Shown here piece after piece: positions 45,932 to 62,445 of a DNA stretch of 64,000 bases. Below the pieces are notes generated by a model. It ran no database searches. It was not told the origin of the DNA and saw nothing but the letters and a program-made list of their open reading frames with translations. This DNA is from Candidatus Pristimantibacillus lignocellulolyticus. Its GTDB lineage: Bacteria; Bacillota; Bacilli; Paenibacillales; Paenibacillaceae. Position numbers and translations under genes: made by a program. The stretch's first letter is position 1, and every line of letters starts with the position of its first letter. The stretch is from NCBI GenBank assembly GCA_023639215.1, contig CP097899.1:4136933-4200932 (forward strand). Direction: 5' to 3'.

Positions 45932-47980
45932 TTAAATAACAGTTCTCTTCCAGAAGCGTTGTTTAGTAATAGCATTTATCAAATCAGTTGTGAATTGTTC
46001 TGTATCAGTCTCGATAACTACGCCTGGTTTTCCAACAAAATTATTTAATTCCATCCAGTTTTTAACCCCAGCATTTGCTCCAATTGGTTTATAGTGAGAA
46101 TATGCTTGGTCAATAAAATTAGCAGCAAGCTGATTAAACTTCTGGCTGTCGTTACTAGCGTTTACTAGGTAAACGGAGTCAAATTGCACAGATTTTGCTG
46201 TTAAAAAAGTATAGTCTGCTTTTATTCCTATTCCGTCTGTTCCTTCAACTACACCAATCTTTTCACTGATGATTTTTGGCATAATCCCTTCGGCTGTCAA
46301 ACGATTCAATACAAATTTCAAATTTGGACCGTTAAAGCCATCTGTAACAATGACGGCAACAGTGAGAGTCTTTGGACTAAATATCGTATTCTCCATACTG
46401 AGTGCTGGCGAAGACTGTGTGACAGTTGAACCACCCGAAGTTGGAGGATTTGCTCCTATAATTTTAGCAAATGAATTCGTTAATTCTAAACTCACGTTAG
46501 CAAACATATCGACAACTTGTTGTTTTACAGAATCACTTTTAACATTAGAAAGTTCAAAGCTGAATGCATCTATAATATGTTTTTTTTCAGTTGGACTCAT
46601 ACTATTCCAGAATAGCGTTGCTTGTGAAAAATGATCTTTAAAGCTATCACTTCTTGCACGAATTTTTCTACCTTCTACTTTTTCTTGATAAGTTTCATAT
46701 CCTCCTTCAGCTGGAGTAGCAGGTCTAGGCGTGTTTCCCGCTAAAGAATTTCGATGGTAACTGACTTTCCCCAAATTAATGGTTTGACGATGATATCCTT
46801 CACGCTGATTATTATGGAAAGGTACTACAGGTCTATTAATTGGAATTTCATGAAAATTAGGACCGCCAAGACGGATTAACTGTGTATCTAAATATGAAAA
46901 TAAACGGCCTTGAAGCAACGGATCATTCGTAAAATCGATTCCTGGTACAACATTCCCTAGATGGAAAGCCACTTGCTCTGTTTCTGCAAAAAAGTTATCG
47001 ACATTACGATTCAAGGTCATCTTGCCAATTATTTTTACGGGGATAATTTCCTCAGGCCATATTTTTGTCGCATCCAATATATCGAAGCCAAGGTTAAATT
47101 CATCTTGTTCATCTAGTATTTGAACGCCTAATTCATATTCAGGAAAGAAACCATTTTCAATAGCATGCCATAGATCGTTGCGATGAAAATCCGGATCGAT
47201 TCCTGCGAGCAAATGAGATTCATCCCAAACTAGAGAATGCACACCTAACAATGGCTTCCAGTGGAATTTCACAAAGTGCGCCTTTCCTTGTTCATTCACT
47301 AATCTAAACGTATGTACACCAAAGCCTTCCATCATTCGGAAACTTCTTGGTATCGCTCGATCAGACATAATCCACATAATCATATGTGCAGATTCTTGGT
47401 TGTTCGCTACAAAATCCCAGAAGGTATCGTGTGCAGTTGATGCTTGTGGTATATCATTATTAGGTTCTGGTTTAAATGAATGAACTAGATCTGGGAACTT
47501 AATTGCATCCTGAATGAAAAATACGGGGATATTATTACCTACTAAGTCGTAATTCCCTTCTTCGGTATAAAATTTCGTAGCAAACCCTCTTGCATCTCGT
47601 GCTGTATCTGAGGAACCTCGGGCTCCATTCACTGTAGAAAAGCGAACAAAAACAGGAGTTTTTGATGAAGTATCTTGCAAAAATTTTGCTCTCGTAAAAT
47701 CCTTCATATTTTCATATAATTCGAACACTCCATGTGCAGCAAACCCACGTGCGTGAACAACTCTTTCAGGTATACGTTCATGGTCAAAGTGAGTTAATTT
47801 TTCCCGGAAATGAAAATCTTCCATTAAAGTTGGTCCACGATCACCAGCTTTTAACGAAAATTCATCCTCAGATACTTTCAACCCTTGGTTAGTAGTTAGA
47901 AACTGCCCTTCATCATCCACTCGAAATGATTCAAGTTGTTCATTTTTACTATTTTCATTTACATTACGCTCATCATCCAT
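45932..47980 (-). CDS. katE: large-subunit catalase HPII
   Basis: [41 protein letters not shown]-terminal DJ-1/GATase-like domain. Confidence 0.93.
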
Positions 47981-48146
47981 TATTACCCCTCCTCATTCAT
48001 AAAATTTATGAGAATTTTCAAGAGAATAGACTAGAATGACACAAAACTAATAAACCAGTCACCGATTGTTTCGGCAACTGGTCTATATTAGATGGGTTTG
48101 GTTCAATTTCAAAGAAAACGTTATTTACCGTTTATTGCTTTAAGCT

Positions 48147-48497
48147 TTACTGTATCTCTAAATAGTCAATGTAAGCATCCCATGTTCCATTATCAGCTGT
48201 GACAATAAGTTCGATCTCTTGATTTCCAGTTCCATGACTGACATTATTTATAGTATAGACTGCTGGATTACTCCCTCCGTAATAGAAGGTACCCTTCAAC
48301 TGTCCACCGATCTTCAAGTCAACTCTGGCCATATTTGAGTTATTCGAAGCACCACGAAGTGAAAAACTATGGGTACCTGTCGTGAAATTTTGTGTGTATT
48401 TTACTGAATCATTGTTAGCGTATAAAGCAACTCCAGTGAACGGCGAACTAATATTACCTGTGTACTGCCCACTTTTCGTCATACTCTCTGCTTCTTT
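48147..48497 (-). repeat. copy 1 of a 351-bp duplicated CBM36-like coding module
   Basis: Matches 49298-49648 with 14 differences by manual count, all synonymous. Confidence 0.9.
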
Positions 48498-49214
48498 TTT
48501 TGTAACTGTAATTGGATTAGTGGTTCCTGTTCCTTCTGGAGCAACCGCTCTCCCTGTGCTCGTAGAGATCATTCCCGAACATAGACCACGGTTCTTAAGG
48601 TTCTGTGAGATCTGCGGAATAGCTTGAAGCGTAGTTTGGTATTGGTCATGCATCAGAATTATGTCACCGTTTTGCAATTGACCAACGGCTGCTACGATCT
48701 GTGCAGTAGTAGCTCCATTCCAATCTTGGGAGTCAACATTCCACAATACTTCAGTAAGACCATTTTGTGCCTGTATGGACCTCAAAGTAGCATTGGTCTC
48801 ACCATAAGGCGGACGGAATAACTTCGGTGCAGCTCCTGTAGCTGCTTGGATTGCTTGTTGTGTCATTGTGATTTGTGAAGACATCTGAGAGCTGTTTAAC
48901 GTAGTCATATGGGGATGAGAATAGGAGTGATTTCCTACCCACATACCAGCAGCCACTTGAGCTTGCACTAATGATGGATTATTTTGGGCGTTTTGCCCAA
49001 GGTTAAACATTGTTGCTCGTAAACCAGCTTGATTCAATGCATTAAGCAGATTTGTCGTATTACTTGCATTGGGTCCATCATCAAATGTCAAACCTACATA
49101 ACCGTTTGGACAGTTTGCATCTGCAGCAATAGCATTAGGCATAAGTGAATTAGAAAATAACGTACCAAAAAGAGCAAACACTGTTAGTACTTTACTTAGT
49201 TTTGAGTTAAACAA
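48147..49214 (-). CDS. secreted CE4 deacetylase (acetyl xylan esterase-like) with C-terminal CBM36-like module
   Basis: Signal peptide; LTFDDGP, GNHSYSHPH, FRPPYG, ILMHD motifs; EAE...YIDY CBM. Confidence 0.85.
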   Translation of the reverse strand: MFNSKLSKVLTVFALFGTLFSNSLMPNAIAADANCPNGYVGLTFDDGPNASNTTNLLNALNQAGLRATMFNLGQNAQNNPSLVQAQVAAGMWVGNHSYSHPHMTTLNSSQMSSQITMTQQAIQAATGAAPKLFRPPYGETNATLRSIQAQNGLTEVLWNVDSQDWNGATTAQIVAAVGQLQNGDIILMHDQYQTTLQAIPQISQNLKNRGLCSGMISTSTGRAVAPEGTGTTNPITVTKKEAESMTKSGQYTGNISSPFTGVALYANNDSVKYTQNFTTGTHSFSLRGASNNSNMARVDLKIGGQLKGTFYYGGSNPAVYTINNVSHGTGNQEIELIVTADNGTWDAYIDYLEIQ

Positions 49215-49297
49215 AATAGGACCTCCTTAAATTTAATTGTAGGTAAACCCTACGAACAAATTCAACCTACTCAACATCGATTGTCGACTTCCAGTTA

Positions 49298-49648
49298 TTA
49301 CTGTATTTCTAAATAATCAATGTAAGCATCCCATGTTCCATTATCAGCTGTAACAATGAGTTCAATCTCTTGATTTCCAGTTCCATGACTGACATTATTT
49401 ATAGTATAGACTGCAGGATTACTTCCTCCGTAATAGAAGGTACCCTTCAACTGTCCACCGATCTTCAAGTCGACTCTAGCCATATTTGAGTTATTCGAAG
49501 CACCTCGAAGTGAAAAACTGTGGGTACCTGTCGTGAAATTTTGTGTGTATTTCACTGAATCATTGTTAGCGTATAAAGCAACCCCAGTGAACGGCGAACT
49601 AATATTACCTGTGTACTGCCCACTTTTCGTCATACTCTCCGCTTCTTT
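49298..49648 (-). repeat. copy 2 of the duplicated CBM36-like coding module
   Basis: Encodes the same 116 C-terminal residues as 48147-48497. Confidence 0.9.
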
Positions 49649-50398
49649 TATGATTCCTGTGCTTGGAGTAGGAGTTGGTGTAGGTGTTGGAGTAGTTCCG
49701 CCGCCGGAATTACCACCAATAGTAAGTGTATTTGTTGTTACATCAGCACTCCCGCTACTTTGATAGCCCTCTACCGTAAGTGCAACTTCATACATCTTAC
49801 CCATTGGCATCCCTAAGCTTTCCCACTTCTTAAAGTGTTCGCTGACAGATATTGTTCCATTTGAGCGTTTAGTTGTTCTTACACTCCAATATTGTTTGAA
49901 TGTTGCAGTACCTATAATTGAGGGTTGATTAGTTCTAGTAGTCTCATATATGTCATATGTCCCTCCGTCTATCGAAATGGAACCCTTTAGTGTGCCTGTT
50001 GGACGATATGTGCCCCAGTTGTCGACAATGTAATATTCTACTAGAGGGTCCTTTGTCCAACCATAAACACATAGATAAGAATTTCCGCCTGGATTGAATG
50101 TTGCATTGTAGTTTATTGATATGTTTCCAAGCTGTGCATGTGTTTTCGTCGAGTCGAACTTCTTGCCTTTACGGAATAACGCATTATTGATGTTACTCCA
50201 CTGGGCACTAAATGCTCCACCACTATTAAGTGTCATACTTGTTGTTCCAGAATCCTTCCATAGCTCATAGTCGTAGCCATCTTGGGTCCCAGTTTGATTG
50301 GAGTTAATCGTAGTTGCCGCCTGTACGATAACTGCGGGGATTGTAAGCGCTAAACAAAGTAAAAGTGTTAAAAATAACCTTATTCTTTTTTGTTTCAT
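49298..50398 (-). CDS. secreted GH11 endo-1,4-beta-xylanase with PT linker and CBM36-like module
   Basis: [18 protein letters not shown] and TVEGYQSSG catalytic Glu motifs; TPTPTP linker. Confidence 0.93.
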
Positions 50399-50725: not shown

Positions 50726-51805
50726 TTAGGCATTTTCCCATTTCTGTTTGATGAACAGTTCATATACTTTAAGTACAATAATTTTGATGATCATATATAC
50801 AGGAATAATCAATAACATGCCTATGATGCCGGCCAGATCTCCTCCAATTAAGACGATTACGATCGTTGTTATTGGATGGATATCCAACTGTTTACCGAAA
50901 ATATAAGGCGCAATAAGATTATCTTGAATTTGCTGTGCTACGAGAATAATGACAAGAGACCAAATTGCGGTGGACGGCGATTCAATGAATCCGATGATTA
51001 GAATTGGAATAGCCGACAAGATAGCACCGATAAATGGAATAAAGTTCATAATAACAGCCACGACTGTAAGTAACAGTGCATAAGGTAGGCCAATAAAAAG
51101 AAAACCAATGTACATGAGAACTCCAAGTGCTAAATTGATCAGTACTCTGCCGACGATAAAATTACTAAGCGACTGATTAATATCTGTTACGACATCTGTG
51201 GCATCTGATTGAAATCTTTTCGGAGTCAATCTAACCAATTTATCTGAGAATCCACCGCTTTCTTTCAGCATGTAGAACAGAATAACAGGGAATATAAATA
51301 ATACAATTGCGACATTAGAAATAACTGAAAATAGTCCTGTTACATAATTCGTTAATAACGTAACCCCTTTATTCAAGTAATTGGTAATTTGTGTTAAAGG
51401 GCTAACATCTGATGGGAAAAAGTCTGCTAAAAATCCACTTTGCTCAATCTCTTTCAATTGTTCATTCAATGAGTTTAATAAGTTTGGAGCGTTGTTAAAC
51501 AAGTTCAACATTTGCGTACGGGCGGTTGGCCACACCCCAATAAAAAAACCAATCAATAGAAATGCTATAAACAAATAGATTAGTAGAATTGATAAACCTC
51601 GGTTAATTTTTTTCTTTTCCATCCAATTTACTATTGGAAGAAGCAAATAATAGAAAAAAACAGATAACATTAATGGAATCGTTATGTTGGTTACCAACGA
51701 TAAAATCGGTTTAAATACAAAATCAACAAGCGTACCAACATACACGATTGCCAATATCATAAATACAGCAAGACATAATTTAATAAAATGATTAAGCTTT
51801 AACAA
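50726..51805 (-). CDS. AI-2E (PerM) family transporter
   Basis: NFIPFIGAI, QQIQDNLIAPYIFG..L.IHP motifs. Confidence 0.9.
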   Translation of the reverse strand: MLKLNHFIKLCLAVFMILAIVYVGTLVDFVFKPILSLVTNITIPLMLSVFFYYLLLPIVNWMEKKKINRGLSILLIYLFIAFLLIGFFIGVWPTARTQMLNLFNNAPNLLNSLNEQLKEIEQSGFLADFFPSDVSPLTQITNYLNKGVTLLTNYVTGLFSVISNVAIVLFIFPVILFYMLKESGGFSDKLVRLTPKRFQSDATDVVTDINQSLSNFIVGRVLINLALGVLMYIGFLFIGLPYALLLTVVAVIMNFIPFIGAILSAIPILIIGFIESPSTAIWSLVIILVAQQIQDNLIAPYIFGKQLDIHPITTIVIVLIGGDLAGIIGMLLIIPVYMIIKIIVLKVYELFIKQKWENA

Positions 51806-51968: not shown

Positions 51969-52730
51969 TTAATTGAGTTGCGAAGCATCAAGCTCAATCA
52001 ATGCATGGCAATTCCTCGATGTTGTGCAGGTCGTAAGCATATAGTCTGGATCCAACTGGACCTGGTGCAATTTCCAGTTACTTTCCAATTCCCCCGATTC
52101 TACCACCGATTGTATACAGAAAACTTGATCATTCTCGCCGCTCCCTTTAAGTCCAGTTCCAACAGCGATAGGAAAATTGCTAACATTGAGAGCAGTTTTA
52201 ACAACACTGAACGAGTTCAACGGTATGGCCAATCCCTTGCCTAAAGCTTTGATGTAGCTTTCTTTGGCCGTCCAGATCATATTAAACATCCGATCGCGCT
52301 CATGTTCAGGGAGATTAATTAATGTTTCATATTCGGTGCTGGTGAACATAGACTGTGCCAGCTGCAGATCCGCCTTGACCATCTTCTCAATATCGATACC
52401 GATTGCCTCTGAGTGGAAAACTGCCACTGTCCATACACCAGAATGTGAGACATTAAATTGTACTTCATTGCCAAGTAAGATTGGCTTACCGTATTCGTTT
52501 TGAGTAAATATCATCTGATGAACTGGTAATTTGTATTTCTCGCGCAGTACATAATTCACTATCATGTTTCCAGAAAGTGATCGCCATTGATCCTCCCAAT
52601 GCCGAAAACGTGCTACCCGCATTGCTCGTGCAACTGGCACAAGCGCAGACCAGCGCTCAATTCTTTCAAGATTTACTTGAACCGAACAATTATCCATTCG
52701 CACAGCATAAATAGTTGGAACAGACATCAT
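51969..52730 (-). CDS. sfp: Sfp-type 4'-phosphopantetheinyl transferase
   Basis: NEYGKP, FNVSHSG, IGIDIE, WTAKESYIKALGKGL; 4-bp overlap with mbtH. Confidence 0.9.
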   Translation of the reverse strand: MMSVPTIYAVRMDNCSVQVNLERIERWSALVPVARAMRVARFRHWEDQWRSLSGNMIVNYVLREKYKLPVHQMIFTQNEYGKPILLGNEVQFNVSHSGVWTVAVFHSEAIGIDIEKMVKADLQLAQSMFTSTEYETLINLPEHERDRMFNMIWTAKESYIKALGKGLAIPLNSFSVVKTALNVSNFPIAVGTGLKGSGENDQVFCIQSVVESGELESNWKLHQVQLDPDYMLTTCTTSRNCHALIELDASQLN

Positions 52731-52947: not shown

Positions 52948-55900
52948 TTAGATCCCTGCACCAATTTGGCGATCTGCAAGTTGCTGTAATTGATCTTTAT
53001 TTCGAATAATCACGGCATCAGGCACAGCATCAGGTAAAATTGTCTCCATATAGCGCAATTGTCGATATTTCATACCGAGTAATCCCCAGATGAACAGGAT
53101 GACACCGATCGAAGTGATTAATAGCCCAATGCCCATCCCATCTCCAGTTCCGAATAGTCCTGTGTCCTTAGTTCCTGCTGGCAACGCGGAAGCAAGTGGA
53201 ACGAAAACAGACGCTACAAGTGGTCCTGCAAGAAGGAAACTAAGTGGACGCATGCTGAAAGCCATAACTTGATTCGTTGCCAATACTCGACCTTGTAATT
53301 CAAGTCCTACCTTCGTTTGAATTAATGCAAGCCAGTGCGTATTAATAAGTGCAAGTGCTAGACCAAAGCCGAATAATCCGATGGCTGCAGTCACAAGTGA
53401 AGGATAGATACCTGCAATTGCAATCGATGCACCAGTCAACATAACGAACCCGACCATCCCATCCGCTCTACGGTCAAATCCGCCCCATACTGACATAAGT
53501 ATCGAGCCGATTAATAGTCCTGCACCTTCGAAGGCAATTACAATACCAACTTTGTCAGCGGTCATGAATTGTAGAAGGAACGGTGTCGTTAGTACGTTAT
53601 ATAAGCTCATGAAGAAATTGACAACAATGAAAAACACGACCATTGCGATCAAGCTCTTCCTTTGCATAATATATTTCCAACCTCCAATGATTTCTCTGCT
53701 CATTGGTTCCTCGCGCTTTTTGAACATCAAGTTCGGGAATCGGATCAGCGAGAGAATGACAATTGACAGACTTAATAGTACGAGATCGATAATGACAATT
53801 CTTTGTAGCCCGATCAATACGACTAGAGCTCCTCCAAGTGCAGGCGCCATAATTCCGTTCAAGGACATAACGAGTTGTCCTAATCCGTTCGCGTGTCCCA
53901 AGTACCTCTTTGGTACGAGTTGCGCTGTTGCGGCTTGGTAGGCAGGCATCGTGAAAGCTCCAGCGATTGATCCTATACCTGCAGCTACGTAGATCGCCCA
54001 CAGTGATAATGCGTCCATATAGAACATAGTCGCGATGAAGATACACGAGCATAATGCTAATAACTGACCTACCAACATCACCTTTCGTCTATCATAGCGG
54101 TCCACAACTGCACCTGCGAGAGGTAGCAGCAACAATGTGGGAAGTATTGCATACAGCGATATCGTCGCATAATCTGAAATCGATCCGGAACGTTCGTAAA
54201 CCCATATTCCTAAGGCGAATCCGGTCAATGACGTACCTATTGTGGAAATAATCAAGCACAATGTAACTAATAAAAACGTTTTTATGCTGGGTTTAACGTC
54301 CTTCTGCAACTGCTTCCTTATTTTTACGTGCTCAGTGACTGATGTTGTCTGAGATTCGTTGTTCAAAGAAAAACGTTTTTTTTCTAATTCGTTATCATCA
54401 TCCCACTGACGAATCTGCTGTGATATAATTTTTACGACATGATCTGATTGATGTTTATGAAAATAATGGCCAGCCTGTTCAACGATATGCAATCTCACAT
54501 CATCACTGAAATCCTGCCACTCCAAGTAACGTTCCTCGTAGAACTCAGTCATTCGATCGGCACCGCCGACAATACAAGATACTGGAGCTTTCAGTTTTGG
54601 TTGCTCTGGTAGAGCGTACAAAGCTGTGTAATAATCCTCCGCTTCTCGTACATCATGCCGCAAGTTACGCAGCACGAATTTCTGCTCTTCCGGGGATATT
54701 TCGTCATCGAAACCACCAAAGGCACGGAGCATGTCGCGTGCGAATTTATCGGACGTCCATTTCTCCTGTGGGAATAATCTATGCCACCATTCCGTAAATC
54801 TGAATGGTAGTCTTGTTCCAGGGAAGGTGCCTGCCATAAAGACTCCACTTACCTCTACATTCGCTTCCTGTAGCAAAAGCGCGGTACGAAGTACCATTGC
54901 CCCGCCTAAGCAATGTCCATACAGATAAACTTCACCTTTAACTTTGTTAATGATTTCTTCTGCAATCCGAGCTGAGGTTTCCTCGAGCGACATTAGCAAT
55001 TGACCATCTCTACTGTAATCATGCCCGGGTAGTTCGACGGCAAACAAAGAATAGTTAGGTGGCAACCCTTTAGCCATCGGCTGGAATGTAATCGCGCTAC
55101 CCCCACCGTACGGTACGCATACTAATGTAATAGCTTTGCCTCCGATATTGGATGCCTTCTTAAATTCAATTAGTAAATCATCACTACGCGTGGCTCCTGA
55201 TGAGAGATGCTCTGCTAATTCACGAATTGTCGGATACTGAAAGAGATCCATCACGCTGAATGAATTGCCCATCTTACGTACAACTTTAATCGCCTTGAAC
55301 GAATCACCACCAAGATCAAAAAATTCGTCGGTGACTCCAACCTTATCTAGACCTAGTATCTCACCCCATACTGCAGCAATTTGATGCTCTTCTTTGGTCT
55401 CGGGTGGAATAAATCCGGCATCACCTGCTCGATTTTCGACACTAGGTGCAGGTAACTTAGTACGATCAAGCTTACCGTTTTCGTTAAGCGGTAGCCGTTC
55501 GATCTCGACGAAGGCCGAAGGTAACATATAGTCTGGTAAAATGTTTTTAATATGCTTTCTTATTGCACTTACATCGATCTTAGTTCCAAGCATATCTTGC
55601 TCTTGACTACCATGTGTCAAGTTGTGCTCCCGCACTAGATAGGCAATCAATCGTTTGTCTCCGGGTTCATCTTCACGTATTATTACGACCGCATCGCGTA
55701 TTCCTTCGAACTGCAGGAGGACTTGCTCTATTTCGCCTGTTTCGACACGATAACCTCGAATCTTGACCTGTTGATCCATCCGTCCAATAAATTGAATTGT
55801 TCCGTTTGGCAAATGGCGAACGAGATCACCTGTACGATACATTCTTGAGCCCGGTCGGACTGAAAATGGATTAGGTATAAATCGTTCTGCAGTTAGATCT

Positions 55901-58515
55901 GGCTTACCATAGTAGCCGCGTGTGACTGCGCTACCGCCGATATACAATTCGCCAATGGAACCAGCAGGAACCGGTTGAAGATAAGCGTTAAGCACATACG
56001 CAGGTGCGTTCGGTATAGGACGACCAAGCGGAAGAATCGCTTGATGATCGTTCTCTTTTGCATCAACAGGAACTTCATAAGCTAGCACGGAAACCGTCGT
56101 TTCTGTAGGGCCATAATGATTCTGGATTCTGCAACTAGGATGAAGTCGTCGAATGTCTGCAATTGTTCCCCAATGTGAGGCTTCACCTGCTAGAATTAAA
56201 CATTCGCGAGGTATGATAACGCTCGGATTAGATACGCCTAGAAGTAACTCCATATGACTTGGAACGATCTTCATGACGTCAATCGGATACAACTCGCAAT
56301 ATGCCGCGAAAGCATCGGGATCAGCAGCACGTTCATACGGGATGACATGCAGTGTTCCTCCTGTTGCAAATGCTCCCCAAATCATTGGCGTTCCGAGGTC
56401 GGCAGCAAGCGTGCTGACGATGGCGAAACTCAACTCTTGTTTTAACTTCATACGCTCCATTATGCCATCCAAATAATTGGCATAATTGCTATGCTCAACT
56501 GCTACGCCCTTTGGTTTGCCCGTTGATCCTGAGGTAAACAATACATACATTAGATCTTCCGGTTTCGAGACAACTTCTGGATTACTTGCATCTTCTCTAG
56601 CGATCGCATCCCAGTCCTTGTCGAGTGAAACGGTGCGTAACGATGAAGAATCCGTACTGTCGAATAGTGGCTGTTGATCAGTTATAGAGCTTTCGGTTAC
56701 GATAACCGATACTTCAGCTTCCTGAGCAATCAATCTTAATCTTTCTACTGGTAACTTAGGATCAAGTGGAACATAAGCGCCACCTGCCTTTAAGATGCCG
56801 AGCAAGCCAACGATAATATCGACTGAGCGCTCCATATAAAGACCTACTGTTTGATTAGGTATAACCTTTATTCCTCGCAAATAATGTGCTAGACGATTCG
56901 CCCTTTCATTCAGTTCCAGATAAGTCAGACTAACCCCTTCAGAGCATACGGCTAATGTCATAGGTGTAAGGATTGCTTGTCGCTCAACATTGAGGTGCGG
57001 AAATTGGAACTCCGCCATAGAAGTCTCGACAACATTCCAATCGACGAGAGTTTTTCTTAATTGTTCGCTCGAAAGTGATGCAATTTCATATAAGGGTAAT
57101 TTTGAATTGTTTAATATACGCTCTAAAATATTATTGTACTGGTCTGCCAATTGCTGAATGGTTGACTCGCGGAACAGGTCTACCCTGTACGTCAACGTAA
57201 CATCCATACCTAATTTTTGATTCTCGAATACTGTCATCGTCAGATCCAGCATGCCTCCACGTTTGCCATCGCCCACGAAAGGTACAATTTGGAGTTCAGG
57301 TAGATTAATCATAGACTGACCAATTCTCTCGAACAAAAACATCGTATCGAAGAAAAGTGAATGACCAATTACACGTTCCGGATTCATCTCTTCGACAAGC
57401 CGGTCGAACGGCAAATCCTGATTATCGTTTGCTTCGAGCACTGTGTCTCGGACTTTTGCAATAAAGTCGCTAAAGGTACCACCCATGTCGATTTCGGAAC
57501 GCAGCGCAACTGTGTTGGCAAAGAAACCAACTAGCTTCTCTATTTCCTGCTTACCTCGATTCGCCATAGGCGTCCCAATGACAATTTCTTGCTTGCCATT
57601 ATAGCTCGCTAGAAGTACTTTATAAGCAGCTAGTAAAAGGACGAACGAGGTGCAACCGAGCTGTTTACTCGTTTCACGGATACGCTGTGAGAATGAAGGA
57701 TCGAGAGTCAAGCTGTAGAAACCGGCTTTGCGTTCACTTTGAATAGCGGGGCGCGGATAATCTGTTGGAAGATCAAGTGTTGCTGGTGCTGGTGTCAGTT
57801 TCTTCTTCCAGTAATCGAGCTGATCTTCGTATTCTGATCCTGTCATCCATTGCCTCTGCCAAACGGCAAAGTCCGGATATTGAATCGGTAGTTCTGGTAG
57901 AGACAATGGCTCATCTAGCGTGATAGAGCGATAGATCGTGGCAAGTTCTACGTCGAACACTTCGGCTGACCATCCGTCATAGATTAAGTGATGTGTCATC
58001 CAGACTAGGATATGCATTTCCGAATCAAGACGGAAAAGCATCGCTTTCACAAGCGGACCATTCAGAAAATCATAAGGTGCCGTTGATTCTTTGTCGATGA
58101 GCTCATAAACTTTATTTTCATCTTTCAACTCAATTATAGGTAGGTCGATTATCATCTGAGGACGAATCATCTGCACGTAATCATCGTTCTCGTAAGCAAT
58201 GACAGCACGCATAATTTCATGGCGCTTAATTATCTCGTTCAATGTTCTATGCAGAGCTGGAATGTTAAGTTCACCAATCAGTTTATAGCCGTTAGCAAAG
58301 TTATATCTCGATGTTCCAGGCATATACTCTTCGAAAAACATAATTCGCTGCTGTGGAAACGATAATGGGAACTTGTTCTCACCAGCTGGCCTTTGCTGTT
58401 TCGGAATAATAGCGGATTCTGCAGCAGCTTTTGCCTTCTGCTGCCTAGCCTTCATCGCAAGGAGAGCTCGGCGTTCAGGTGACAATTGTTCGAGTCGGTC
58501 AATTGTTTTAGTCAT
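52948..58515 (-). CDS. NRPS C-A-PCP-TE fused to a C-terminal DHA3-type MFS exporter (1855 aa)
   Basis: HHLIYDG C domain (H175), TSGSTGKPKG and YGPTE A domain, LGGDS PCP (S1072), GHCLG TE (C1202), then about 430 aa multi-TM MFS with GAVVDRYDRRKV motif; one open frame in the ORF track. Confidence 0.9.
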   Translation of the reverse strand: MTKTIDRLEQLSPERRALLAMKARQQKAKAAAESAIIPKQQRPAGENKFPLSFPQQRIMFFEEYMPGTSRYNFANGYKLIGELNIPALHRTLNEIIKRHEIMRAVIAYENDDYVQMIRPQMIIDLPIIELKDENKVYELIDKESTAPYDFLNGPLVKAMLFRLDSEMHILVWMTHHLIYDGWSAEVFDVELATIYRSITLDEPLSLPELPIQYPDFAVWQRQWMTGSEYEDQLDYWKKKLTPAPATLDLPTDYPRPAIQSERKAGFYSLTLDPSFSQRIRETSKQLGCTSFVLLLAAYKVLLASYNGKQEIVIGTPMANRGKQEIEKLVGFFANTVALRSEIDMGGTFSDFIAKVRDTVLEANDNQDLPFDRLVEEMNPERVIGHSLFFDTMFLFERIGQSMINLPELQIVPFVGDGKRGGMLDLTMTVFENQKLGMDVTLTYRVDLFRESTIQQLADQYNNILERILNNSKLPLYEIASLSSEQLRKTLVDWNVVETSMAEFQFPHLNVERQAILTPMTLAVCSEGVSLTYLELNERANRLAHYLRGIKVIPNQTVGLYMERSVDIIVGLLGILKAGGAYVPLDPKLPVERLRLIAQEAEVSVIVTESSITDQQPLFDSTDSSSLRTVSLDKDWDAIAREDASNPEVVSKPEDLMYVLFTSGSTGKPKGVAVEHSNYANYLDGIMERMKLKQELSFAIVSTLAADLGTPMIWGAFATGGTLHVIPYERAADPDAFAAYCELYPIDVMKIVPSHMELLLGVSNPSVIIPRECLILAGEASHWGTIADIRRLHPSCRIQNHYGPTETTVSVLAYEVPVDAKENDHQAILPLGRPIPNAPAYVLNAYLQPVPAGSIGELYIGGSAVTRGYYGKPDLTAERFIPNPFSVRPGSRMYRTGDLVRHLPNGTIQFIGRMDQQVKIRGYRVETGEIEQVLLQFEGIRDAVVIIREDEPGDKRLIAYLVREHNLTHGSQEQDMLGTKIDVSAIRKHIKNILPDYMLPSAFVEIERLPLNENGKLDRTKLPAPSVENRAGDAGFIPPETKEEHQIAAVWGEILGLDKVGVTDEFFDLGGDSFKAIKVVRKMGNSFSVMDLFQYPTIRELAEHLSSGATRSDDLLIEFKKASNIGGKAITLVCVPYGGGSAITFQPMAKGLPPNYSLFAVELPGHDYSRDGQLLMSLEETSARIAEEIINKVKGEVYLYGHCLGGAMVLRTALLLQEANVEVSGVFMAGTFPGTRLPFRFTEWWHRLFPQEKWTSDKFARDMLRAFGGFDDEISPEEQKFVLRNLRHDVREAEDYYTALYALPEQPKLKAPVSCIVGGADRMTEFYEERYLEWQDFSDDVRLHIVEQAGHYFHKHQSDHVVKIISQQIRQWDDDNELEKKRFSLNNESQTTSVTEHVKIRKQLQKDVKPSIKTFLLVTLCLIISTIGTSLTGFALGIWVYERSGSISDYATISLYAILPTLLLLPLAGAVVDRYDRRKVMLVGQLLALCSCIFIATMFYMDALSLWAIYVAAGIGSIAGAFTMPAYQAATAQLVPKRYLGHANGLGQLVMSLNGIMAPALGGALVVLIGLQRIVIIDLVLLSLSIVILSLIRFPNLMFKKREEPMSREIIGGWKYIMQRKSLIAMVVFFIVVNFFMSLYNVLTTPFLLQFMTADKVGIVIAFEGAGLLIGSILMSVWGGFDRRADGMVGFVMLTGASIAIAGIYPSLVTAAIGLFGFGLALALINTHWLALIQTKVGLELQGRVLATNQVMAFSMRPLSFLLAGPLVASVFVPLASALPAGTKDTGLFGTGDGMGIGLLITSIGVILFIWGLLGMKYRQLRYMETILPDAVPDAVIIRNKDQLQQLADRQIGAGI

Positions 58516-59920
58516 AGAGCACCTCCGTCAAAGGCAATTGTTGATTGTTAAGTTGACGCTGTAAAAGCCTCTGCGCGAGCAAAGAACGCTTGTTGGAATT
58601 AAGTGCCTCATTGTTTACATCTAGACGATGATCCGCTAACGAGACTACGCTTTGTAAGAGCTGCTCCTGCTTTGCTGCCATATAATCTACACTCAATTGA
58701 TCCGATTCAATGGCGTTGCTTCTCCTACCAATGACCGATTCAATAGCTGTACATGCCATTGTCATCGTATCATGTTCTGCCAAGGCCTTAGCTAACTGAC
58801 GACAGCGCTCCTTCACCGCATTTGTCTGGATGGTTTTTATAGTATTAGCGATCAATGTTGGTTCCCACTGCATCGGCGGTAAATAATCGCCGATACCGAG
58901 TTGTTTAATCCGCCTTCCGTTATCTGGTCGATCCGTATCGGCTGCGAGCGCTAGCTGTGGTACCGCTGCAGTCATCGCTCCGGTAATTGTTCCAATCCCG
59001 CCATGGTGAATCACGCCGCTGACTAGTGGATAGACACTGGCAAGTGGCAGAATCTTGTACCAGCGAATATGATCTGGAAGCTCGCCTTGAATGAATTCTT
59101 CATGTCTTGTAACCAGAATCGTTCGCTGACCTGACAATTTGACACCTTCAATCGCAGCCTGGTAGAAGTTCGGTTTAATCATTTTGCCTGTCCCACCTGT
59201 AATCAAAAGCGGCTTCTCGCCTGACTGGATAAAATCTAGTAAATCGATTGGCAATGGCTCGTATTCGATCTCATCTGCGAGTGGGAAACCTACTGTTTCC
59301 ACCTTCAGCGCCCAATCTGGAGTTTCGACTGCTGCATCAAAACTCTCATGCCAGAAACCGATGTTTTTCTTCACAGCTCCCATCCACGATGTCCAATTCG
59401 ATACCGGAGTAAGTCCTAGATCGTTCCGGAAAGTATTAATACTTGATATTCCGAAGTCCAGTCCAAGTTCCTCCCAGATATGCAGCTGCGTTACATAGCT
59501 TGGTGCCAGTATTGCGGAGACGATAGGTACTTGCATAATTTCAGACACGATCATTGCTACATAACCGTCACGATCCCTACAAATGAGTACGGAATCTTCT
59601 TCTTGGCAAAGCTCTGTTATGATGTCATACTCGTGTTGGAATTTTTCCTTTGTATAATACTTGCGTTGGTAATCTTCATAGAGTTCAGGCTTATTCAGCG
59701 GATCCTCGATCATGGAAAGATCTTTCATGATCTCTGTATATTCCTCTGGTTTATCGATCCCACGAAATGCGATACCTGACTTCTCGGCAAGTTGTGAAAA
59801 CACACCGTGTGTCACCAGAGTTGCCTTATGTCCGCGGCGACGAAGTGCAGAAGCCAACCGTAGGAACGGGAGTACATCTCCGTTCGTCATATGCGTGCTA
59901 AGAACGAAATTTGCCAACAA
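58508..59920 (-). CDS. GT1 family glycosyltransferase with C-terminal extension
   Basis: GDVLPF...LRRRGH N-terminal motif, HHGGIGT...AAVPQL...DRPDNGRR nucleotide-sugar motif; 8-bp overlap with the NRPS start. Confidence 0.88.
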   Translation of the reverse strand: MLANFVLSTHMTNGDVLPFLRLASALRRRGHKATLVTHGVFSQLAEKSGIAFRGIDKPEEYTEIMKDLSMIEDPLNKPELYEDYQRKYYTKEKFQHEYDIITELCQEEDSVLICRDRDGYVAMIVSEIMQVPIVSAILAPSYVTQLHIWEELGLDFGISSINTFRNDLGLTPVSNWTSWMGAVKKNIGFWHESFDAAVETPDWALKVETVGFPLADEIEYEPLPIDLLDFIQSGEKPLLITGGTGKMIKPNFYQAAIEGVKLSGQRTILVTRHEEFIQGELPDHIRWYKILPLASVYPLVSGVIHHGGIGTITGAMTAAVPQLALAADTDRPDNGRRIKQLGIGDYLPPMQWEPTLIANTIKTIQTNAVKERCRQLAKALAEHDTMTMACTAIESVIGRRSNAIESDQLSVDYMAAKQEQLLQSVVSLADHRLDVNNEALNSNKRSLLAQRLLQRQLNNQQLPLTEVLYD

Positions 59921-59947: not shown

Positions 59948-61813
59948 TCACTTCAGTAACGCCTCGATTTCTGCTTCTGATAGATGTTCCATTTCGCTCA
60001 ATAACGCTTCGAGTTCGGCATCGTCGGTGTCGGCAAGTAAATTCGTTTCTATGATCGCAGCAAGTGAGCGAATTGTCGTTCCTTGTGTAAGCATGTCTTT
60101 TAGAGATACTTTCACACCAAATAGATGTCCACAGCGGACAAGTATTTGAGTTGCTACGAGCGAATGACCGCCCAAATCAATAAAATTGTCATCAAGTCCG
60201 ATTTCATCAAAATTGAAAAATCCAGACCAGATCTGAGCAAGCTCTTTCTGAATGTAAGTCTGTGGTGGAACATATTCTTGACTGATCATGAGGCGTGACA
60301 CAGTTGGACTCGGTAATAGTTTCCGGTCTGTCTTGCCACTTGGGGTTAGTGGGAATGTCTCCATCTCAATAAAATAAGAAGGAATCATATAGTCGGGTAA
60401 ATGCTTCTGTAGATAATTTCTTAACTCGCTAATAGATGGAGAATATACAGGGTTAGGGATGAAATAAGTTGTGATGCGCTGGTCTCCGGGTTGATCTTCA
60501 CGAACGACAGTTACGACTTGATTGACGCCTGGATGTTGTTCAAGTACATTGCTAATCTCACCTAACTCGATACGGAAGCCCCGTACCTTTACTTGATCAT
60601 CGTTTCGACCTAAACATTCAAGATTCCCGTCACTGAGCCAGCGTCCAAGATCTCCGGTATGGTACATACGTGATCCCGGTTCTTTGCTATACAGATCGGG
60701 TACGAATCGCTCGGCAGTCAGATCCGGTCTGCCGTGATAGCCACGTGCAAGTCCGATACCACTGATAAAGAGTTCTCCGATTTCACCTTGACTGACCTGT
60801 TCATATCGGTCGTTTAGGACGTACACTTCGTCATCAGAAATAGCCTTACCAATCGGAATTATAGATCGTTCAAGGTTACGGTCGCTAGTCCAACTCGTTA
60901 CAAATACCGCTGCCTCTGTTGGGCCATACAGATTGTGGAGTTGTCCAGACATTGTGCTGCAGAAGCGTTCGTTCAGCGCTGCAGATAAAGGCTCCCCACA
61001 TAAGAAAACATGCTTCAGAAGAGGGAGATCTTCGGATAGGTCTGAGCTTAAAAAGGTCTGGAGCATCGTTGGCACGAACTGTACAAATGTAATTGACTCA
61101 CGTTTCATAACATCCCACAAATATGAGGTATCAAGATGCCCTTGGGGCTTAGCCATAATGAGACTTGCACCACACATATGAGGCCAGAAAAATTCCCATA
61201 CCGAAACGTCAAAACTATAAGGAGATTTCTGAAGAAGTCTATCGTTTTGCGTCATTAGGAAGGTAGATTGTAGCCAGAGAACTCTGTTACGTATGGCAGC
61301 ATGTGTATTCATTGCGCCTTTAGGTTTGCCGGTTGATCCTGAGGTATAGAACATGTAAGCTAGATTGTTTTCATCTAAAGTGATATTAAGATTTCCTTGC
61401 TCTTCTCGATATCCTTCCGATGATTCTACTTCATCTAAAATCAGTACATCGGCGTCAAACTCATCCAGTAGTTCTGAAAATTGACGCTGCGTAATTACAA
61501 GTCTTACGTCGCTATCATTAATCATATAAGCAAGTCGATCCTTCGGATAATCCGGATCTAACGGTACGTACGCACCCCCTGCCTTCAATACAGCGTAAAG
61601 TGCAACAACCATTTCAATCGAACGCTCCATAGATATTCCTACTAGAATGTCTGGTCCGACACGAAGCGACCTTAACCGATACGCTAGTAAATTTGCGCGA
61701 CGGTTCAACTCGTCGTAAGTTACGGACTTCCCCTCGAATCTAACGGCTTCTTCATTGGGTGTACGTTCTGTTTGTTGCTCAAACAACTGGTGAATCAAAT
61801 TTTTCACCTGCAT
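59948..61813 (-). CDS. standalone NRPS loading module A-PCP
   Basis: YTSGSTGKPKG, YGPTE, YHTGDLGRW, SGKTDR A10 Lys, LGGHS PCP (S551), acidic C-terminal tail. Confidence 0.92.
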   Translation of the reverse strand: MQVKNLIHQLFEQQTERTPNEEAVRFEGKSVTYDELNRRANLLAYRLRSLRVGPDILVGISMERSIEMVVALYAVLKAGGAYVPLDPDYPKDRLAYMINDSDVRLVITQRQFSELLDEFDADVLILDEVESSEGYREEQGNLNITLDENNLAYMFYTSGSTGKPKGAMNTHAAIRNRVLWLQSTFLMTQNDRLLQKSPYSFDVSVWEFFWPHMCGASLIMAKPQGHLDTSYLWDVMKRESITFVQFVPTMLQTFLSSDLSEDLPLLKHVFLCGEPLSAALNERFCSTMSGQLHNLYGPTEAAVFVTSWTSDRNLERSIIPIGKAISDDEVYVLNDRYEQVSQGEIGELFISGIGLARGYHGRPDLTAERFVPDLYSKEPGSRMYHTGDLGRWLSDGNLECLGRNDDQVKVRGFRIELGEISNVLEQHPGVNQVVTVVREDQPGDQRITTYFIPNPVYSPSISELRNYLQKHLPDYMIPSYFIEMETFPLTPSGKTDRKLLPSPTVSRLMISQEYVPPQTYIQKELAQIWSGFFNFDEIGLDDNFIDLGGHSLVATQILVRCGHLFGVKVSLKDMLTQGTTIRSLAAIIETNLLADTDDAELEALLSEMEHLSEAEIEALLK

Positions 61814-62445
61814 TCAATCACTCCTTTTCTTGTGTAGTAAATAGTAGAAATTACATATATTGTATAAATCAAGCTGCATCATCATTATAGTGAGCAGCTA
61901 ATCAAAGTGTCAATATTTATGTTAAATTGAAAAAAAAGTATTCAATGAGTCCAACAAAAAAGATTCTTCTCGTTACCAAGTACATAAAAAGTAGCCGCAT
62001 ACTTTCATAATGTTGTTTCTAGTGATATCTAATTCTTCTTTTATCGGTTTTATCTGTTCTGCTGAATTACATCCAGACAAAATAACAAAATCTATAACAA
62101 GTTAAGACGATAAAAACGTTTTTATTAAATCTTTTCTCATAAGTGTTCCTCACTTTATTAAGTTTAGATTTTTTAAACTATTCGGTAAATTGCATGAATA
62201 TCCTTCACGAGATGACATTTCACTATCCATGGCATCTATCAACTAGTGATATCTATCAATACTTGATATTAGTTGAAAATGATAGAAATAGGTATTCCGC
62301 TTAGCTCATGCAAGGATGCATGTACATACAATACAAATGAATAGATAAGTCGCATAAAGATGGAGGATGAGAACGATGAGCTATGTTTAATAGAAAGATT
62401 AATAAATAGAGAGAGAAAAAATCTATGCGAATAGAGGTTAAGTTA

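Follow-up and report, generated by a model that had tools for sequence, protein, structure and literature searches.

Exporters of non-ribosomal peptides are usually encoded by separate genes and are presumed to take their product from the cytoplasm; to our knowledge, little work has addressed how such peptides pass from one to the other of the two, synthetase and exporter. In the enterobactin system, the termination module EntF, composed of condensation (C), adenylation (A), carrier (T) and thioesterase (TE) domains, uses a serine as TE nucleophile and yields a catecholate trilactone, and export is assigned to a separately encoded transporter of the major facilitator superfamily (MFS), EntS. 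The obafluorin non-ribosomal peptide synthetase (NRPS) ObiF1 of Burkholderia/Pseudomonas (PDB 6n8e) is likewise a C-A-T-TE protein fed by a separate loader and has a GHC motif in its TE; an MbtH-like domain is present and an MFS is absent, the substrate of the A domain is a beta-hydroxy aromatic amino acid, and the TE forms a beta-lactone (Kreitler et al., 2019; PMC6668435). In LplT-Aas (NF006386) and MprF, an MFS protein or flippase is covalently linked to an enzyme that activates or transfers acyl groups; these fusions act on phospholipid substrates and contain no NRPS modules. Here we analyzed a 64,000-nucleotide stretch (the window) of Candidatus Pristimantibacillus lignocellulolyticus (contig CP097899.1, positions 4,136,933 to 4,200,932), in which one gene encodes a C-A-T-TE module and a complete MFS transporter as a single protein.

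This protein shares traits with each of these systems. Its C-A-T-TE part resembles the EntF termination module, its transporter belongs to the same Pfam family as EntS (PF05977), and the logic of release followed by MFS export is analogous; however, the two functions are fused, the TE nucleophile is a cysteine and, with an Asp-like code instead of a Ser-specific one and a score of 363.9 against the EntF equivalog model NF007605 (cut-off 2400), the protein is not an EntF equivalog. From ObiF1 it differs in its Asp-like code, the fused transporter and the lack of MbtH and hydroxylase, and from LplT-Aas and MprF in an MFS domain that is closer to DHA3. The sequence-only reading had expected NRPS/MFS fusions to occur as database annotations, and several relatives indeed carry the NCBI product name "non-ribosomal peptide synthetase/MFS transporter". 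The window's protein is assigned to this family, with every defining feature listed for it present. The named proteins of Paenibacillus endoradicis, Herpetosiphon geysericola, Embleya scabrispora, Kitasatospora and Corallococcus sicarius (~1810-1870 aa, 40-88% identity) have the same C-A-T-TE(Cys)-linker-MFS architecture with 12 transmembrane (TM) helices; the GHC, DRxDRR and KVGLELQGR motifs are common to all, the terminal code is mostly the same Asp-like one, and no structural difference was found. The gene and its parts (aa positions are those of the protein) are:

52948..58515, reverse strand: whole fused gene, C-A-T-TE-linker-MFS, 1855 aa, ~205 kDa (open reading frame and Pfam).
57058..58380, reverse strand: C domain, aa 46-486, with HHLIYDG at 175 and preceded by the N-terminal helix LSPERRALLAMKARQQK (Pfam, motif scan).
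55471..56985, reverse strand: A domain, aa 511-1015, with the Asp-like code DLPKIAHVS(K) (Lys278, His322) (Pfam, code reading).
55204..55383, reverse strand: T domain, aa 1045-1104, phosphopantetheine site Ser1072 (Pfam PP-binding, motif).
54415..55128, reverse strand: TE domain, aa 1130-1367, triad Cys1202 (GHCLGG), Asp1320, His1350 (Pfam, motifs).
54292..54414, reverse strand: polar linker, disordered and non-conserved, aa 1368-1408 (hydropathy, alignment, AlphaFold).
53062..54291, reverse strand: 12-TM MFS domain, aa 1409-1818, motif A DRYDRRK at 1472 and KVGLELQGR at 1735 (Pfam, hydropathy, AlphaFold).
52951..53061, reverse strand: conserved cytoplasmic C-terminal tail, aa 1819-1855 (37 aa), YRQLRYMETILPDAVPDAVIIRNKDQLQQLAD (alignment).

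The open reading frame of 1855 codons contains no internal stop, as had been claimed from the sequence alone. It starts with an ATG located 7 nt downstream of a GGAGG sequence, and this start overlaps the stop of the preceding glycosyltransferase gene by 8 nt. All domains are present (the A domain as AMP-binding, aa 511-869, and AMP-binding_C, aa 928-1015), and the catalytic motifs are all intact: HHLIYDG (175), SGSTGKPKG (662), the NGKLDR lysine, GGDSF (1069; Ser1072), GHC (1200), Asp1320 and His1350. The linker spans aa 1368-1408, which agrees with its earlier placement at about aa 1375-1405; the description made from the sequence alone proved right in all respects. It is polar and becomes rich in Lys and Arg next to TM1, and the linkers of homologues could not be aligned with it. 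An AlphaFold model of aa 1125-1855 (mean predicted local distance difference test score, pLDDT, 78.4; predicted template modelling score 0.67) shows the TE folded and the linker at pLDDT <50 in aa 1377-1405, followed by twelve TM helices and a short tail; the hydropathy scan agrees, with 12 TM helices in aa 1409-1818. The Lys/Arg-rich end of the linker and the position of the DRYDRRK loop between TM2 and TM3 place the N-terminus of the MFS, and hence the TE, in the cytoplasm. Throughout the relatives few residues separate the His motif of the TE from TM1, even with the last TE helix and the linker included (median 49 aa, 5th-95th percentile 33-78), so the TE is always kept near the transporter.

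A TE-MFS profile built from ten diverse homologues and searched against 185,579 species-representative genomes retrieved 412 loci in at least four phyla. The fusion, treated as a rarity in the sequence-only reading, is thus typical of a family present in at least 412 species-level genomes and named by NCBI; in addition, the protein database contains hundreds of proteins of ~1810-1870 aa with the same Pfam set. Locus-level counts given below rest on 80 of the 412 loci (by record title, 30 Bacillota, 25 Actinomycetota, 18 Chloroflexota, 5 Pseudomonadota, 1 SAR324 and 1 unassigned). TE and MFS share one open reading frame in all 80. In the genus of the window's organism the gene occurs in 12 of 74 species genomes, six of which have two copies, and all 18 copies are open (1843-1954 codons). 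The analyzed genome, complete in a single contig of 5.27 Mb, carries a second copy, a paralogue of 1837 aa, uninterrupted and 39% identical to the window's protein.

The suggested check for homologues of C-A-T-TE-MFS architecture thereby found them in number, and none of the examined relatives was naturally split. One candidate for such a split, in Streptomyces sp. HUAS TT11 (CP196184.1; L081, 9900-10160), was rejected. In this locus an NRPS of 1973 aa is followed by a stand-alone MFS of 439 aa with a 28-nt overlap, but upstream of the MFS its frame stays open through the PSLxxF sequence conserved at the start of TM1, and the NRPS terminates in an Arg/Pro-rich sequence that looks out-of-frame; we therefore regard it as a one-base frameshift in the GC-rich linker. 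Since this was the only NRPS-adjacent separate MFS found, and the stand-alone relatives of the MFS lie in unrelated contexts, the proposition that homologues are consistently encoded as separate genes was rejected as well.

Over aa 1100-1855 the protein is 88% identical to the named P. endoradicis protein and 40-50% identical to those of Herpetosiphon, Embleya and Kitasatospora. Three comparisons show TE and MFS to be a single inherited unit. When AMP-binding_C, T and TE were used as the query, without any MFS residues, ~114 of the best 120 matches nevertheless bore an MFS, and unfused relatives with a TE appeared only at ≤36% identity; one of them (P0275) has a Cys TE and a neighbouring MbtH gene, like ObiF1. 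The reciprocal query, with the MFS only, recovered fragments of fused proteins down to ~44% identity, and true stand-alone pumps (~440 aa) began at 36-42%. Pairwise distance matrices of TE and MFS from 112 fused proteins were correlated (r = 0.94), a value reached in 0 of 500 Mantel permutations.

Some members of the family show further variation. A protein of 2277 aa from a JGI metagenome (P0023) has six domains, GT1-C-A-T-TE-MFS, with a glycosyltransferase covalently joined as well. In an Anaerolineae metagenome-assembled genome (L019, 50-6679) the terminal cassette is accompanied by NTP_transf_5, NKWYS and BtrH_N/DUF4872 proteins and a TubC_N-docked C-A-T protein, and in Kitasatospora hibisci (L050, 12323-13678) a tyrosinase-domain protein partners it.

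The earlier statement that no biochemical characterization is known also stood, as none was found in the searchable literature. No paper describing or testing bacterial NRPS-MFS fusions was found in the full-text literature outside subscription journals; the closest candidates mention MFS domains only statistically or concern only the sensor-kinase-MFS family, and no compound was found linked to any of the at least 412 loci. The architecture is thus real, widespread and annotated by name, yet uncharacterized; it joins the known pairing of NRPS and MFS exporter by covalent fusion, with a cysteine TE.

The TE nucleophile is a cysteine in all 121 homologues of the first search, within G[HQ]CxG in 118 and AQCV[AS]G in 3 of them. 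Among solved structures, ObiF1 was the best match of the TE sequence (113.7 bits, E = 1e-31; next match 60.6) and ranked first in the fold search (E = 4.8e-12, root-mean-square deviation 2.3 A); the top matches of that search also include the SulM TE, another cysteine enzyme. The cysteine of the ObiF1 TE serves in the release of an N-acyl-alpha-amino-beta-lactone (PMC6668435), and the SulM TE is described as monobactam-producing. The TE of the window's protein is accordingly placed in the ObiF1-like cysteine type, known from the release of strained, reactive products. PF03621 (MbtH) matched neither the NRPS nor any of the scanned neighbouring proteins.

Specificity codes of the A domains were taken from an alignment for which motifs A4 and A5 served as anchors; the reading is considered valid because it recovered textbook Gly, Ala, Leu, Glu, Asn, Ser and Tyr codes in related loci. 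The in-cis A domain has the code DLPKIAHVS(K), and DLTKIAHVS(K) is found in most clades, in four phyla. Both resemble the classical Asp code DLTKVGHIGK (Lys278, His322), and the terminal A domain looks specific for Asp and not for a beta-hydroxy amino acid; a smaller clade has a Glu code at this position. The feeding modules differ. The loader in the window has the code DVWQFCLVF(K), of the small-residue type; a Tyr-like code (DASTVAAVC) is present in the loaders of Herpetosiphon, Fontibacillus and the paralogue, and other loci have Gly feeders (Chloroflexota), Ala plus Gly (Kitasatospora) or trimodular lines (Clostridia and Brevibacillus). Conservation of the acidic terminal code next to differing loaders points to a fixed cassette, C-A(acidic)-T-TE(Cys)-MFS, with variable feed. 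Neither the DLTKIAHVS-type codes nor the loader codes occurred in the literature searched.

In the MFS domain, Pfam recognized MFS_1 and MFS_3 (aa 1411-1755), with scores above the cut-offs for both PF05977 (67.2 vs. 27) and PF07690 (100.6 vs. 33.4). Mean identity to 88 distant homologues is 46.8% for the MFS, 48.5% for the TE, 46.5% for the A domain and 32.5% for the C domain, with an unalignable linker, and in close relatives the MFS is the best-conserved domain (86%), which supports purifying selection on it of the same kind as on the catalytic domains. Invariant positions comprise the conformational-switch motif A (D-R-x-D-R-R, between TM2 and TM3), the KVGLELQGR loop and a number of polar residues embedded in the membrane. 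In a Foldseek search, the MFS part of the model best matched the drug:H+ antiporters LmrP, NorA, QacA and MdfA, and VMAT. The nearest stand-alone relatives are ordinary DHA3-type (MFS_3) pumps of ~440 aa (P0158, P0203 and P0239), 36-42% identical across the MFS and sharing RxxEDELPDAI after TM12; they are unfused, lie in unrelated efflux-pump contexts of MerR/TetR type and lack the extended DKDxLQxxAD tail of the fused protein. This pattern fits a predicted functional efflux domain rather than a decaying anchor.

The fused gene is the third of four overlapping or tightly spaced genes, in the order A-T, GT1, fused gene and phosphopantetheinyl transferase (PPTase). The remaining elements of this operon are:

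61884..61913, reverse strand: putative operon promoter TTGACA-18-TATAAT (12/12), ~70 nt upstream of the A-T gene (sequence match).
59948..61813, reverse strand: stand-alone loader A-T, 621 aa, with an acidic, docking-like C-terminal tail (Pfam, code reading).
58508..59920, reverse strand: GT1 glycosyltransferase, 470 aa, Glyco_transf_28 N-terminal and EryCIII-like C-terminal parts (Pfam).
51969..52730, reverse strand: Sfp-type 4'-phosphopantetheinyl transferase, 253 aa (Pfam).

The promoter-like site likely drives the operon. The 5' leader, inspected as a clue to the substrate, contained no riboswitch, T-box or other Rfam element. A PPTase homologue lies near the NRPS-MFS gene in 22 of the 80 loci, mostly downstream and on either strand. 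In 25 loci the slot that separates the loader gene from the NRPS-MFS gene holds a glycosyltransferase gene, of this GT1 type in 11 and of the unrelated GT4 family in 14, and all 14 GT4 loci have a Tyr-like loader. The best PDB matches of the window's GT1 are CalG1, a sterol glucosyltransferase, GtfD and YjiC.

The C-terminal extension of this glycosyltransferase (58553-58609, reverse strand, aa 438-456; EALNSNKRSLLAQRLLQRQ) is similar to the helix at the N-terminus of the NRPS (58413-58470, aa 16-34; EQLSPERRALLAMKARQQK). The likeness, LSPEKRxLL followed by basic residues, is found in both glycosyltransferase families. It was scored by Smith-Waterman alignment against shuffled sequences (300 per pair) in 27 glycosyltransferase/NRPS pairs; the median z was 5.9, and in 14 pairs none of the 300 shuffles reached the observed score. 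The pair in the window reached z 2.9. In GT4 loci the mimicry is much stronger (z ~6 to 10 in most of them), as in Herpetosiphon (LPAEQRALLAQRLKQRR vs. LSPERRALLAQRLRQRQ). This suggests that the glycosyltransferase may dock on the acidic A-T tail, as the NRPS would, and glycosylate on-line, in which case the membrane would be the site of assembly for all components of the line.

The paralogue (G000:C1:4123345-4132071; L091, 6345..15071, reverse strand) lies ~5-14 kb before position 1 of the window. Its system consists of three genes, encoding A(DASTVAAVC, Tyr-like)-T, a GT4 glycosyltransferase and C-A(DLTKMAHVS)-T-TE(GHCVG)-MFS, and is flanked by TetR, SDR, LytR-CpsA-Psr and VanY genes.

Downstream of the PPTase gene, an AI-2E transporter gene (50726-51805, reverse strand) was considered as part of the system and rejected, because none of the 80 loci contains a homologue and its GC content (30-34%) differs from that of the NRPS operon (42-47%). 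The only strong terminator-like hairpin on the reverse strand follows this gene (50684-50652). The neighbouring genes in 45932-50398 are of ordinary kinds, for a large-subunit catalase, a CE4 polysaccharide deacetylase that carries a CBM6, and a GH11 xylanase, and no link between them and the NRPS operon was seen.

The following pathway is proposed. The Sfp-type PPTase would prime both carrier domains, and the separate A-T protein would load a small amino acid. The glycosyltransferase would join the complex and probably glycosylate the intermediate or product. The C domain would couple residue 1 to the Asp-like residue that the in-cis A domain supplies, and the dipeptidyl chain would pass to Cys1202 of the ObiF1-like TE at the cytoplasmic face of the membrane. 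Once released, the product would be exported by the MFS domain of the same protein, of DHA3/MFS_3 type and proton-coupled. The conserved fusion, MFS motif A, the likeness to antiporters and the Cys-TE all fit a reactive product that is set free at the membrane and then exported. The explanation that we favour and consider probable is that the Cys-TE releases the product at the inner membrane face and the attached MFS exports it; coupling of the two steps, as put forward in the sequence-only reading, is plausible, and that reading is partly supported. On this view the NRPS product would be the MFS substrate and the fusion would couple the steps kinetically; predictions likewise concern which two amino acids are joined, how the chain is released, whether the product is toxic and what the glycosyltransferase modifies.

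Some of the results weigh against this interpretation. TIGR00900 (DHA3) is the best family model for the MFS, yet its score of 187.8 bits is below the cut-off of 319.6, so that the earlier designation of the domain as DHA3/MefA-like holds as regards the best family; the Mef(B) model scored 108.7 bits. The LplT half of the LplT-Aas model NF006386 also matches the domain (125.5 bits), and a PDB sequence search with it gave no match at E ≤ 0.01. The AlphaFold output carries no inter-domain contact information. An in-frame TTG after AAGGAAG (54307-54309, aa 1403), weak and non-conserved, is a putative internal start that would yield an MFS of 453 aa. Finally, an Asp-like code offers no beta-hydroxyl for lactonization of the ObiF type, and a Pfam scan of the operon found no hydroxylase or transaldolase. 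With an Asp-like terminal residue and no hydroxylase, ObiF-type beta-lactone formation cannot be assumed, and a beta-lactone product, considered by analogy with ObiF1, was not adopted. Hydrolysis, cyclization via the side-chain carboxylate and transfer to an acceptor are the possibilities for release.

A more far-reaching form of the release-and-export interpretation, which we put forward tentatively and hold to be doubtful, is that Cys-TE-MFS constitutes a portable release-and-eject module, in which peptidyl-S-Cys1202 would be converted into a reactive electrophile at the mouth of the transporter and a self-toxic acylating product would thereby be kept out of the cytoplasm. The conserved Asp-like residue at the C-terminus may, for example, give rise to a strained lactone or to a cyclic anhydride or imide. 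The glycosyltransferase, docked through its copy of the NRPS helix, may complete a three-protein membrane-bound factory with direct covalent coupling of synthesis and export.

Alternatively, the system may modify lipids or glycolipids, with the TE moving the peptidyl chain to a membrane (glyco)lipid or other membrane acceptor made with the help of the glycosyltransferase, and the MFS acting as a flippase, as in LplT-Aas, MprF and YpfP/LtaA. Enzyme-flippase fusions are an established pattern, and the match of the MFS to NF006386 is consistent with this, as are the two unrelated families, GT1 and GT4, that fill the glycosyltransferase slot, since both include lipid glycosyltransferases, and the envelope genes near several loci (LytR-CpsA-Psr, VanY, D-Ala-D-Ala carboxypeptidase, polysaccharide deacetylases). 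However, the DHA3 model scores above the LplT model, the nearest stand-alone relatives are efflux-pump-like in their contexts, and the top structural matches are drug antiporters, with LtaA and LplT absent among the 50 matches listed. Moreover, the GT1 matches the natural-product enzymes CalG1, GtfD, YjiC and OleD and not MurG or UgtP, and the examined Kitasatospora, Anaerolineae and Vibrio loci have no glycosyltransferase in the slot. Lipid modification is therefore unlikely.

It is somewhat harder still to maintain that the fusion is neutral or the MFS only a membrane anchor, that is, that the transporter works independently (after proteolysis or from an internal start) or merely localizes the enzyme, with no gain from channelling. 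Unfused pairs of NRPS and MFS exporter, such as EntF/EntS, function well, and a disordered, unconserved linker and the weak in-frame TTG with its AGGA box at aa 1403 could be explained in this way. This is opposed by the failure to find a natural split among relatives (the L081 case being a linker frameshift), by the co-inheritance of TE and MFS across phyla, by the short distance kept between the TE His and TM1, and by a conservation of the MFS far too high for a mere anchor. An assembly or sequencing artefact, in which a frameshift or missed stop joined neighbouring genes, is excluded for practical purposes, because the junction recurs in frame in all 80 of the related loci, all the genus copies and the paralogue of the same single-contig genome, and sequencing errors disrupt frames rather than fuse them.

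In the family described here, release domain and pump are welded together and have been kept so across phyla, along with an unusual cysteine nucleophile and a conserved last residue. The window's four-gene operon, with a predicted product of dipeptide scale and a paralogous system for comparison, offers a compact and genetically tractable test of release-export coupling. The TE-MFS cassette is also a possible engineering part for the secretion of NRPS products. The family points to an unexplored class of products and, if these are reactive electrophiles, it may provide a new antibiotic or enzyme-inhibitor scaffold.

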